From Escherichia coli (GTDB taxonomy: Bacteria > Pseudomonadota > Gammaproteobacteria > Enterobacterales > Enterobacteriaceae), in NCBI RefSeq assembly GCF_003334405.1, contig NZ_QOWM01000002.1: a stretch of 64,000 nt of DNA; one strand, given 5' to 3'. A program made the position numbers and the translations under genes. Below the pieces are notes generated by a model. The model ran no database searches. It was not told the DNA's origin and saw only the letters and a list, made by a program, of their open reading frames with translations. How positions within the stretch are numbered: position 1 is the first letter of the stretch; each line of letters opens with the position of its first letter. This document shows positions 19,066 to 20,196 of this stretch, one piece after another.

Positions 19066-20196
19066 GTGACAATAGCAAGAGATTCTGTTAGTGGTGAAAT
19101 TGTTCATGGTCATGATCTTCGGGAAATGGATGATCTTTATATACGAACAACCACTTTTGAATGCCCGTATGACAAATGTAGGATACCCGCTACTCCATGT
19201 AGCTTCAAAGAAATAAATTTAAATCAATCATACTTTCGATATAAAGAGACTCATAGGCCGGGATGTAAGATTCATGATCCTAAGAGTAAAAATAAGTGTA
19301 ACTCAAAGAATAATAAAAAGCATAATTCACCACCGGCATTAGCTATATCTCTTCTGAAACTTGATGTGTCTGAAAGAAATTACGACTCTTCTGGCAGAAG
19401 AATTATCAAACAGACGCGAGATGATGAAAAAGATTTGGGAGGTAAAGTACACCCTGTGTCATCTTCAAGCATCAAACCGGTAGTAGACTACTACATTAAT
19501 GGAGATAATCTCTATGAACCATTATCAATTCCCCCTTATGGAGTTAGAACTTATAAAGATACTTTTCAACTAATCATCTATAAAGAAGGAATTAGATATA
19601 ATAAGCCAGCAATTTATTTTGGTAAAATTCAATCTAATATACGGCTGGAGATAAATTCGAATAGATATTACCTTACTTTTTTAGCCAGAAAGAAAGGTAC
19701 CAAACAAGCATATAAACTTGAAATTGATGCTTCAGAATGGGATGAAAGTAAAAAGAGTTTTTTCTGTAGTGAGTATGAAAAACAAAGAGCAGAAGCAAAT
19801 AAGTATTATAATGGACTAAAAGACAAGCGCAAAGCAACCAAATATCTTAATGTTTTCTTTTTTGGTTTTCCTGATGAGTGCGATAGTTTTTTATTTAAGA
19901 CTAGTTTTTTTAAATTGATTTATATCGTTTTCTTAGATGATTTTGATGTGACTTATAATGACAAAAACTACAGCATAGAAAAAGAACAGCTAATTAGAGA
20001 TGAAATTAACAAAGAACATTTGACAGCTCATCAAAATAGAATAAACCTTGCTGAGGTTGCTGAGGTTGCTGAGGTTGCTGAGGTTGCTGAGGTTGCTGAG
20101 GTTGCTGATTTTGACAAGAGCGAATTTAACCCTTCGGATTCTGATAGGAAAATATGGACTGGGATAAGAAAGCTTATTTCATTCTTTAAAAAATAG
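19066..20196 (+). CDS. Hypothetical Lys/Asn-rich protein with C-terminal (AEV)6 repeat, 376 aa
   Basis: Very AT-rich; Cys/His cluster near N-terminus ('FECPYDKCRIPATPC...HRPGCKIH'); GTG start. Confidence 0.55.
   Translation: MTIARDSVSGEIVHGHDLREMDDLYIRTTTFECPYDKCRIPATPCSFKEINLNQSYFRYKETHRPGCKIHDPKSKNKCNSKNNKKHNSPPALAISLLKLDVSERNYDSSGRRIIKQTRDDEKDLGGKVHPVSSSSIKPVVDYYINGDNLYEPLSIPPYGVRTYKDTFQLIIYKEGIRYNKPAIYFGKIQSNIRLEINSNRYYLTFLARKKGTKQAYKLEIDASEWDESKKSFFCSEYEKQRAEANKYYNGLKDKRKATKYLNVFFFGFPDECDSFLFKTSFFKLIYIVFLDDFDVTYNDKNYSIEKEQLIRDEINKEHLTAHQNRINLAEVAEVAEVAEVAEVAEVADFDKSEFNPSDSDRKIWTGIRKLISFFKK
20050..20103 (+). repeat. Perfect 9-bp tandem repeat (gctgaggtt) x6
   Basis: Read directly in sequence; encodes AEVAEVAEVAEVAEVAEV. 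Confidence 0.95.

Follow-up and report, generated by a model that had tools for sequence, protein, structure and literature searches.

The questions raised by this locus are what kind of protein is encoded directly in front of a set of Qat defence genes in Escherichia coli, whether that protein belongs to Qat, and what a perfect tandem repeat near its C-terminus means for it. The locus lies within a stretch of 64,000 nucleotides from contig NZ_QOWM01000002.1 (assembly GCF_003334405.1), which is referred to below as the window. The gene is an open reading frame (ORF) of 376 aa with a GTG start at 19066-20196 on the + strand. It is a real gene, horizontally acquired, and its product is the long form, with a variable-number tandem repeat (VNTR) in its linker, of a known and uncharacterised protein family, that of PD-lambda-4 B, or Avs8B.

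Classification

The initial annotation, made from the DNA letters alone, described the gene as an orphan. This did not stand, since the ORF is a clear homologue of PD-lambda-4 B/Avs8B. An alignment of the close family compared by hhalign with an Avs8B-like alignment scored 99.9% (E 1.5e-34, 276 columns), with residues 1-289 of the ORF placed against 1-298 of the Avs8B-like set. The family profile, used in a full HMMER scan, recovered 233 representatives at 50% identity clustering (111 at E ≤ 1e-10), and representatives of about 300 aa match PD-Lambda-4_B (PDLC03992) end to end, with E-values down to 4.7e-189. The ORF itself gave a single weak partial match in the PADLOC scan, also to PD-Lambda-4_B (aa 209-288, E 3.7e-6). 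Close relatives alone, in Enterobacterales and Vibrionaceae, were found by word-indexed searches. Foldseek against AFDB50 yielded 141 matches, all uncharacterised or named automatically after their repeats ('Procyclic acidic repetitive protein'), in Pseudomonas, Acinetobacter, Neisseria, Nocardia, Mycobacteroides, Bacteroidota and Desulfovibrio. A peptide-pattern scan of genome contigs, with patterns specific to the close subfamily, returned 5 loci. The sequence matches to multicystatin, concanavalin B and ureidoglycolate hydrolase in the PDB are spurious, and kinship with the WYL domain, suggested by the name of one AFDB entry, was rejected as Pfam WYL matches no family member. CoiA_N (PF25164) is matched weakly by 3 of 137 members (E 0.007-0.1), none of them at E ≤ 0.001.

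PD-lambda-4 is now named Avs8. The product of its gene A is a sensor of major capsid proteins, a STAND NTPase. Avs8 defends without Avs8B, and Avs8B on its own gave no defence against lambda. The whole N-terminal domain of the window protein is homologous to Avs8B (PDLC03992; WP_000443183.1 in ECOR07), the CCHC and FFxG motifs being common to both, and each of these uncharacterised proteins adjoins a defence NTPase. Avs8B has about 303 aa without linker or tail, is paired with the STAND NTPase Avs8A and is about 22% identical to the window protein. The latter, in contrast, carries a C-terminal extension that includes a VNTR and an amphipathic helix and has about 90 aa (in other strains up to about 285 aa), and it lies 5' of the KAP NTPase QatA (E = 0 to PADLOC QatA). 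Avs8A (Mrr nuclease plus STAND NTPase) is not beside the ORF, no STAND or Mrr gene being present between 14 and 30 kb of the window.

Gene features

The features of the gene and of its product are as follows.

19009..19038, + strand: sigma-70-like promoter match upstream of the ORF (TTTAAA, 18-nt spacer, TAGAAT), by consensus
19055..19060, + strand: Shine-Dalgarno sequence AAGGAG, read from the sequence, with the GTG start 5 nt on
19066..20196, + strand: coding sequence, 376 aa, long-form member of the PD-lambda-4 B/Avs8B family, by ORF and homology
19066..19275, + strand: small, beta-rich, zinc-ribbon-like N-terminal domain, aa 1-70, with conserved C33, C38, H63 and C67 as well as A4 and F57, by conservation and structure prediction (pLDDT about 88-95)
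19276..19464, + strand: Lys/Asn-rich segment, aa 71-133, mostly of low confidence, net charge +6, with a conserved NSPPAxxISLL motif
19465..19977, + strand: predicted OB-fold core, aa 134-304, beta strands and a long helix at 227-250; Y163, F167, F264 and F265 near-invariant
19978..20049, + strand: helical beginning of the C-terminal linker, aa 305-328 (predicted helix 305-336, confidence dropping past residue 330)
20050..20103, + strand: six exact GCTGAGGTT units, (AEV)6, aa 329-346, a hypervariable VNTR (array with partial flanks 20048-20108)
20113..20193, + strand: C-terminal tail, aa 350-376
20146-20193, + strand: cationic amphipathic helix RKIWTGIRKLISFFKK, aa 361-376, hydrophobic moment 0.79, net charge +6

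In support of the GTG start, all homologues keep the N-terminal sequence MTIA(K/R)D. The promoter match is the sole promoter-like site on the + strand across 18400-20700, a region in which such matches, by consensus alone, are no more numerous than in shuffled sequence. The composition given in the initial annotation was borne out. The ORF has a GC content of 0.332 against 0.502 for the window, the ten lowest-GC segments of 1131 nt all overlap it, and the product is rich in Lys (10.9%), Asn (6.1%) and Tyr (6.1%). Its placement directly upstream of qatA is likewise correct: QatA to QatD occupy 20328-24887, are recognised by the PADLOC Qat models (E between 0 and 1e-97) and are separated from the ORF by 131 nt, a gap in which no terminator-like site was found.

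Domain architecture

The structure was predicted with AlphaFold2 (AF2). An earlier run with 14 sequences gave a predicted local distance difference test score (pLDDT) of 63; the run was repeated with 137 sequences and reached a pLDDT of 84 and a predicted template modelling score (pTM) of 0.75. Across these 137 members, with a mean column identity of 12%, C33 and C67 are invariant, and C38, H63, F264 and F265 are conserved in at least 90%. The columns of the CCHC site and of the FF(x)G strand motif are also invariant in the Avs8B-like set. The zinc-ribbon-like Cys/His cluster noticed at first is therefore a conserved site and no chance grouping, as it is kept across 137 divergent members. The model gives residues 134-304 a barrel of five strands, with a helix placed between the third and the fourth, and an oligonucleotide/oligosaccharide-binding (OB) fold is reasonably supported for them. 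The tail helix is predicted at 358-375 with low confidence.

Among 146 representatives with a complete N-terminal domain, 85 extend by 25 aa or less beyond it, as does Avs8B, and 50 extend by more than 60 aa. The latter, about one third of the representatives, form the long form, in which the N-terminal domain is followed by a low-complexity linker, with much Ser, Glu and Pro, and by a short amphipathic helix of cationic character at the C-terminus. The tails of 40 of the 50 end with a net charge of at least +3 and a hydrophobic moment of at least 0.5, with endings such as ...LISFFKK, ...ILNFFRK and ...RRLWRWLFKR. The (AEV)n repeat is the linker of the long form. A variable surface protein, one of the roles suggested initially, is unlikely in view of the predicted cytoplasmic-type Zn-ribbon/OB fold and the absence of a signal-like hydrophobic stretch at the N-terminus; a secreted or surface variable antigen was rejected on the same grounds. 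The sole hydrophobic element of the window protein is the C-terminal amphipathic helix.

Copy-number variation in E. coli

The six exact copies reported near the C-terminus were recovered by Tandem Repeats Finder as an array of period 9 (6.8 copies, 100% match, 20048-20108). By chance, an array like this would be expected about 1e-22 times in 64 kb. About 245 of 5426 complete E. coli genomes carry the gene, with 5 to 71 perfect copies overall; two fetched loci have 71 and 61 of them. Across a spread of 56 sampled genomes the count ran from 5 to 60 (median 34), and 54 of the 56 alleles differ by exact multiples of 9, while the flanks of the array are 99-100% identical between strains. The comparison of related genomes proposed in the initial annotation thus gave widely different counts, in E. 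coli as well as in the Vibrio plasmids described below, and its expectation that slippage would alter the repeat number without switching the gene off is strongly upheld by the 9-nt steps. The gene is length-polymorphic, not phase-variable. Fast change of copy number with retention of the frame and of the C-terminal helix follows from the perfect tandem array of a 9-bp (3n) unit. Contingency loci of Neisseria, Haemophilus and Campylobacter likewise have a perfect intragenic repeat whose copy number is highly mutable between close relatives; they differ from the window gene, in which the unit is a multiple of 3 and slippage alters protein length rather than acting as an on/off switch. With its perfect units and a copy number that differs among close strains, the array is a hypervariable coding VNTR of the kind used in multiple-locus VNTR analysis (MLVA).

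One of the two exceptions in the sample is the allele of E. coli strain 300709, which is annotated as frameshifted in RefSeq. It consists of 28 perfect units, one unit of 8 bp (GCTGAGGT) and 14 further perfect units, so that the frameshift stems from the loss of 1 nt inside one unit, and either a genuine inactivation or a sequencing error may lie behind it. The hypervariable repeat in the linker is the reason why short-read assemblies break here; those that stop at the repeat gave rise to two clusters of about 907 and about 1019 'partial' proteins. The count of six in the window is close to the minimum for E. coli and may reflect a collapse of the repeat in the source assembly.

The AEV repeat is not mentioned in the searchable literature. 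A role at the DNA level, as an iteron or a Chi-like site, appears unlikely, because other lineages carry an unrelated 6-bp unit at the same position of the protein.

Repeats in homologous proteins

The homologue on Vibrio plasmids of the pVA1 type, about 30% identical, contains (AEV)16 with the unit GCTGAAGTT, and (AEV)n also occurs in Aliivibrio. At the same linker position, (PE)n is found in Yersinia, Xenorhabdus, Pantoea, Erwinia, Enterobacter and E. coli O157. The corresponding features in the fetched loci are as follows.

L008 6906-7051: (AEV)16 homologue, Vibrio parahaemolyticus pVPE61a, a virulence plasmid of the pVA1 type associated with acute hepatopancreatic necrosis disease (AHPND)
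L026 2002-3294: 430-aa paralogue holding MLVA locus TR2, E. coli O157:H7 strain 86-24
L026 3022-3195: (CCAGAG)29, within the paralogue of O157:H7 86-24

In near-identical AHPND plasmids of the pVA1 type, span lengths imply about 3 to 29 copies. The '9-bp SSR' (simple sequence repeat) published for genotyping of these plasmids was considered as a candidate for the same array and set aside, as it is TTGTTTTTC at another locus.

The (PE)n paralogue is present in 314 E. coli genomes, mostly O157:H7. Its (CCAGAG)n array fell into 26 length classes, over 35 six-bp units, among 45 sampled. The published primers for the MLVA locus TR2 match exactly at L026 2717-2734 and 3315-3332, flanking (CCAGAG)29. 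The repeat of TR2 is listed as TGGCTC in a Noller-type primer set, with the highest diversity index, 92.2% (PMC2246123), and TGGCTC is the reverse complement of a rotation of CCAGAG. Judged by primer positions and repeat unit, the (PE)n repeat of O157:H7 is the typing locus TR2. The TR2 gene is a paralogue of the window gene (52-58% identity, 430 aa in 86-24) that is hypervariable in frame at the same linker position. Its unit has 6 bp and encodes (PE)n, whereas that of the window gene has 9 bp and encodes (AEV)n, and its island, in O157, O55 and O121 lineages, is distinct from the ExPEC-type (extraintestinal pathogenic E. coli) pheV islands of the window gene. The TR2 literature consulted handles the locus as a typing marker only and does not discuss the protein.

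The (PE)n genes of Enterobacter and O157 follow a conserved block (L011 4547-9605, L015 4915-9871 and L026 1-1606) of tandem tyrosine recombinases resembling a 'recombinase trio', a protein of about 543 aa annotated as DNA-binding and two proteins of about 135 aa. The block suggests a specific mobile element that carries the (PE)n subfamily. A further protein, P0014 (243 aa, on an 810-bp metagenome contig of the European Nucleotide Archive), joins an unrelated N-terminal segment of about 100 residues to the C-terminal half of the family, from about family residue 226 on. The shared segment carries the (PE)n linker and the tail, and is E. coli-like at its start and Yersinia-like after that. A mosaic of this kind is suggestive of recombination between C-terminal modules.

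Proposed role

The reading preferred here, which is given about an even chance of being right, is that the gene encodes a long-form member of the Avs8B family in which a nucleic-acid-binding Zn-ribbon/OB module is tethered, acts independently of Qat and bears a repeat linker that drifts in length by slippage. The predicted module would bind nucleic acid, most likely single-stranded DNA (ssDNA), because of the OB fold and the conserved aromatic residues Y163, F167, F264 and F265. The layout would resemble that of the single-stranded DNA-binding protein (SSB), with OB fold, disordered linker and C-terminal tip. The C-terminal helix may serve as a tether, either to a partner protein or to the inner membrane, and the acidic linker would be a spacer, possibly a DNA-mimicking auto-inhibitor, with an exact length that is weakly constrained. 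Copy number would change through slipped-strand mispairing. The protein would act on its own, for a mobile element or as an independent passenger of defence islands, and not as a fifth Qat subunit. SSB, T4 gp32 and T7 gp2.5 have no sequence-level similarity to the ORF, and no Pfam SSB model is matched by the ORF or by the 137 members. The tip of the window protein is cationic and amphipathic (+6), in contrast to the acidic DDDIPF type of SSB, and in this putative ssDNA-binding protein the zinc site lies in a separate N-terminal ribbon, unlike in the three known proteins.

Several observations weigh against this proposal. The E. coli and Vibrio proteins, only about 30% identical, keep nearly the same 9-bp AEV unit, which hints at a sequence-specific role of the repeat beyond that of a mere spacer. 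The tether function of the C-terminal helix is read from a physicochemical pattern alone. No Pfam, NCBIfam or PHROG model matches the ORF: Pfam gave no match even at E ≤ 10 and none that was usable among the 137 members, NCBIfam returned noise alone, and PHROGs gave nothing below E 0.08. All members of the family are uncharacterised both biochemically and genetically. Finally, co-transcription with qatA, and hence some functional coupling, is possible, as there is no terminator before qatA and the sole promoter-like site is upstream of the ORF.

Association with mobile elements and defence systems

The gene is carried along by mobile elements and defence islands. On pVA1-type Vibrio plasmids it overlaps the preceding gene and belongs to a block with traF, a lytic transglycosylase, H-NS and a type IV coupling protein. 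The Yersinia homologue is oriented divergently to MobQ/MobA relaxases and has TraD and PilV beside it, with AbiGi and a shufflon nearby. In Enterobacter it is found about 1.5 kb from a MobP relaxase, after a tyrosine recombinase trio. These settings, together with an OB fold and acidic linker that recall SSB, gp32 and gp2.5, would suit a factor for transfer or establishment of mobile elements, that is, an SSB-like or anti-defence protein of mobilisable plasmids, integrative and conjugative elements and islands, comparable with leading-region genes. Such a role is nevertheless rather unlikely for the family, as many members, including the short Avs8B type and the gene of this E. coli island, have no transfer genes nearby, the orientation relative to relaxase genes is inconsistent, and no known SSB, PsiB or Ard family resembles the protein in sequence.

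Elsewhere the neighbours of homologues are a prophage integrase and, repeatedly, defence genes: an OLD-family nuclease at one locus, a type I restriction-modification system at another, BrxR with an SNF2 helicase and DUF1156, and a DO-GTPase system. Together with Qat, Avs8A, AbiGi and a PARIS-like AAA+DUF4435 system, these make the defence context of the family a consistent one, and the tail resembles membrane-active peptides. A stand-alone defence protein acting by abortive infection could be derived from this, in which the OB/Zn module senses phage nucleic acid or a phage SSB-like protein and the C-terminal helix damages the membrane. It is an unlikely explanation. Avs8B alone failed to defend against lambda, the short form that makes up the majority of the family is wholly without the tail, unrelated passenger genes are typical of defence islands too, and both toxicity and a membrane effect of the protein are purely conjectural here.

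A bolder version, which is also doubtful, would make the long-form Avs8B-like proteins an unrecognised class of autonomous mobile-element or immunity factors, Zn-ribbon/OB sensors kept at the membrane through their amphipathic C-terminal helix, with repeat length as an adaptive contingency. If it were true, the linker would have repeatedly evolved a hypermutable repeat, (AEV)n in ExPEC islands and pVA1 and (PE)n in O157 and other Enterobacterales. Length would then tune the reach of the protein, its auto-inhibition or its evasion of a phage or plasmid antagonist, and TR2, used for typing O157, would have arisen as a side effect of the arms race.

Relation to Qat

An accessory role in Qat, raised in the initial annotation, was not upheld. 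It would have the gene co-transcribed with qatABCD as a fifth, modulating or sensing component of this E. coli Qat subtype. The gene is indeed immediately 5' of qatA on the same strand, with the short gap and single upstream promoter-like site described above; about 238-245 E. coli genomes hold the ORF and Qat together, and by analogy its homologue Avs8B was first defined within a two-gene system with an NTPase. This co-occurrence, however, stems from one clonal E. coli tRNA-Phe island with at least 99% identity, and the E. coli loci L005 and L006 keep the gene without Qat, insertion sequence (IS) elements following instead. Outside Escherichia, Qat was not found beside a homologue in about 12 loci of other genera, a set that is not a systematic survey of the Qat loci of other species. 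No homology of the ORF to QatA, B, C or D came out of its PADLOC scan. Defence is also obtained without such a gene, as E. coli QatBC alone protects against lambda-vir and the four-gene qatABCD operon of Pseudomonas aeruginosa is active (PMC13279940), and Avs8B is dispensable for Avs8. A fifth Qat component is accordingly improbable. That the gene adjoins qatA reflects one E. coli tRNA-Phe island and not Qat systems as such, the possible co-transcription is no evidence of shared function, and the ORF is probably no Qat component.

An artefact of assembly or sequencing behind the repeat variation, or a decaying, unselected pseudogene, is hardly credible: frameshifted or split alleles do exist (strain 300709, with its 8-bp unit, and L005 are frameshifted, and L009 is split) and assemblies are error-prone at long perfect repeats, but 54 of the 56 alleles step by exact multiples of 9 in perfect units, independent lineages with different units vary alike, the O157 version TR2 is an experimentally validated VNTR sized by PCR with a diversity index of 92%, and conservation of the ORF, the CCHC site and the C-terminal tail extends from E. 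coli to Vibrio and well past it.

Significance

A family and a predicted fold can now be given to a gene of hundreds of pathogenic E. coli genomes (ExPEC/sequence type ST95, CFT073, S88) that is currently named 'hypothetical' or, wrongly, 'procyclic acidic repetitive protein' or 'Ribonucleases G and E'. Avs8B, the enigmatic second gene of PD-lambda-4, is one member of a large family found beside many unrelated defence systems. Because its neighbours are so varied, the family is regarded as an independent module and not as a subunit of any one system, which matters for system boundaries in annotation of the PADLOC or DefenseFinder type. Three separately evolving hypervariable repeats, those of ExPEC, of O157 TR2 and of the AHPND plasmid pVA1, share one homologous linker. 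The AEV array offers a new high-resolution typing marker for ExPEC and pVA1, in the case of pVA1 a potential marker distinct from the published SSR. The protein is also a candidate for a new nucleic-acid-binding player in conflicts of mobile elements or phages.

Other features of the island

On the - strand, a P4-type integrase (29081-30406) beside tRNA-Phe (30541-30616) marks the boundary of the island, and the ORF lies toward the end that is far from the integrase. Downstream of Qat, at 25440-27351 on the - strand, is a two-gene module resembling a cyclic oligonucleotide-based antiphage signalling system (CBASS). It comprises a nucleotidyltransferase of 442 aa (NCBIfam CBASS cyclase, E 1.5e-28, below the curated cutoff) and a SLATT-domain membrane protein of 191 aa (NF033630, E 1e-65). 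The left side of the island (16196-18827) looks scrambled. At its start, an ORF of 622 aa there resembles the gene that follows glcD; it continues in antisense across a fragment of an Ag43-family autotransporter (16982-18301, - strand; NF033177, E 2e-185, partial). It is accompanied by a 132-aa fragment (18429-18827) that RefSeq names 'VasL domain-containing, partial' in other strains; in Citrobacter and Yersinia, intact VasL/type VI secretion system genes are found upstream of the homologue. Other dips in GC content within the window are at 12001-13000 (0.41) and 61001-62000 (0.43).

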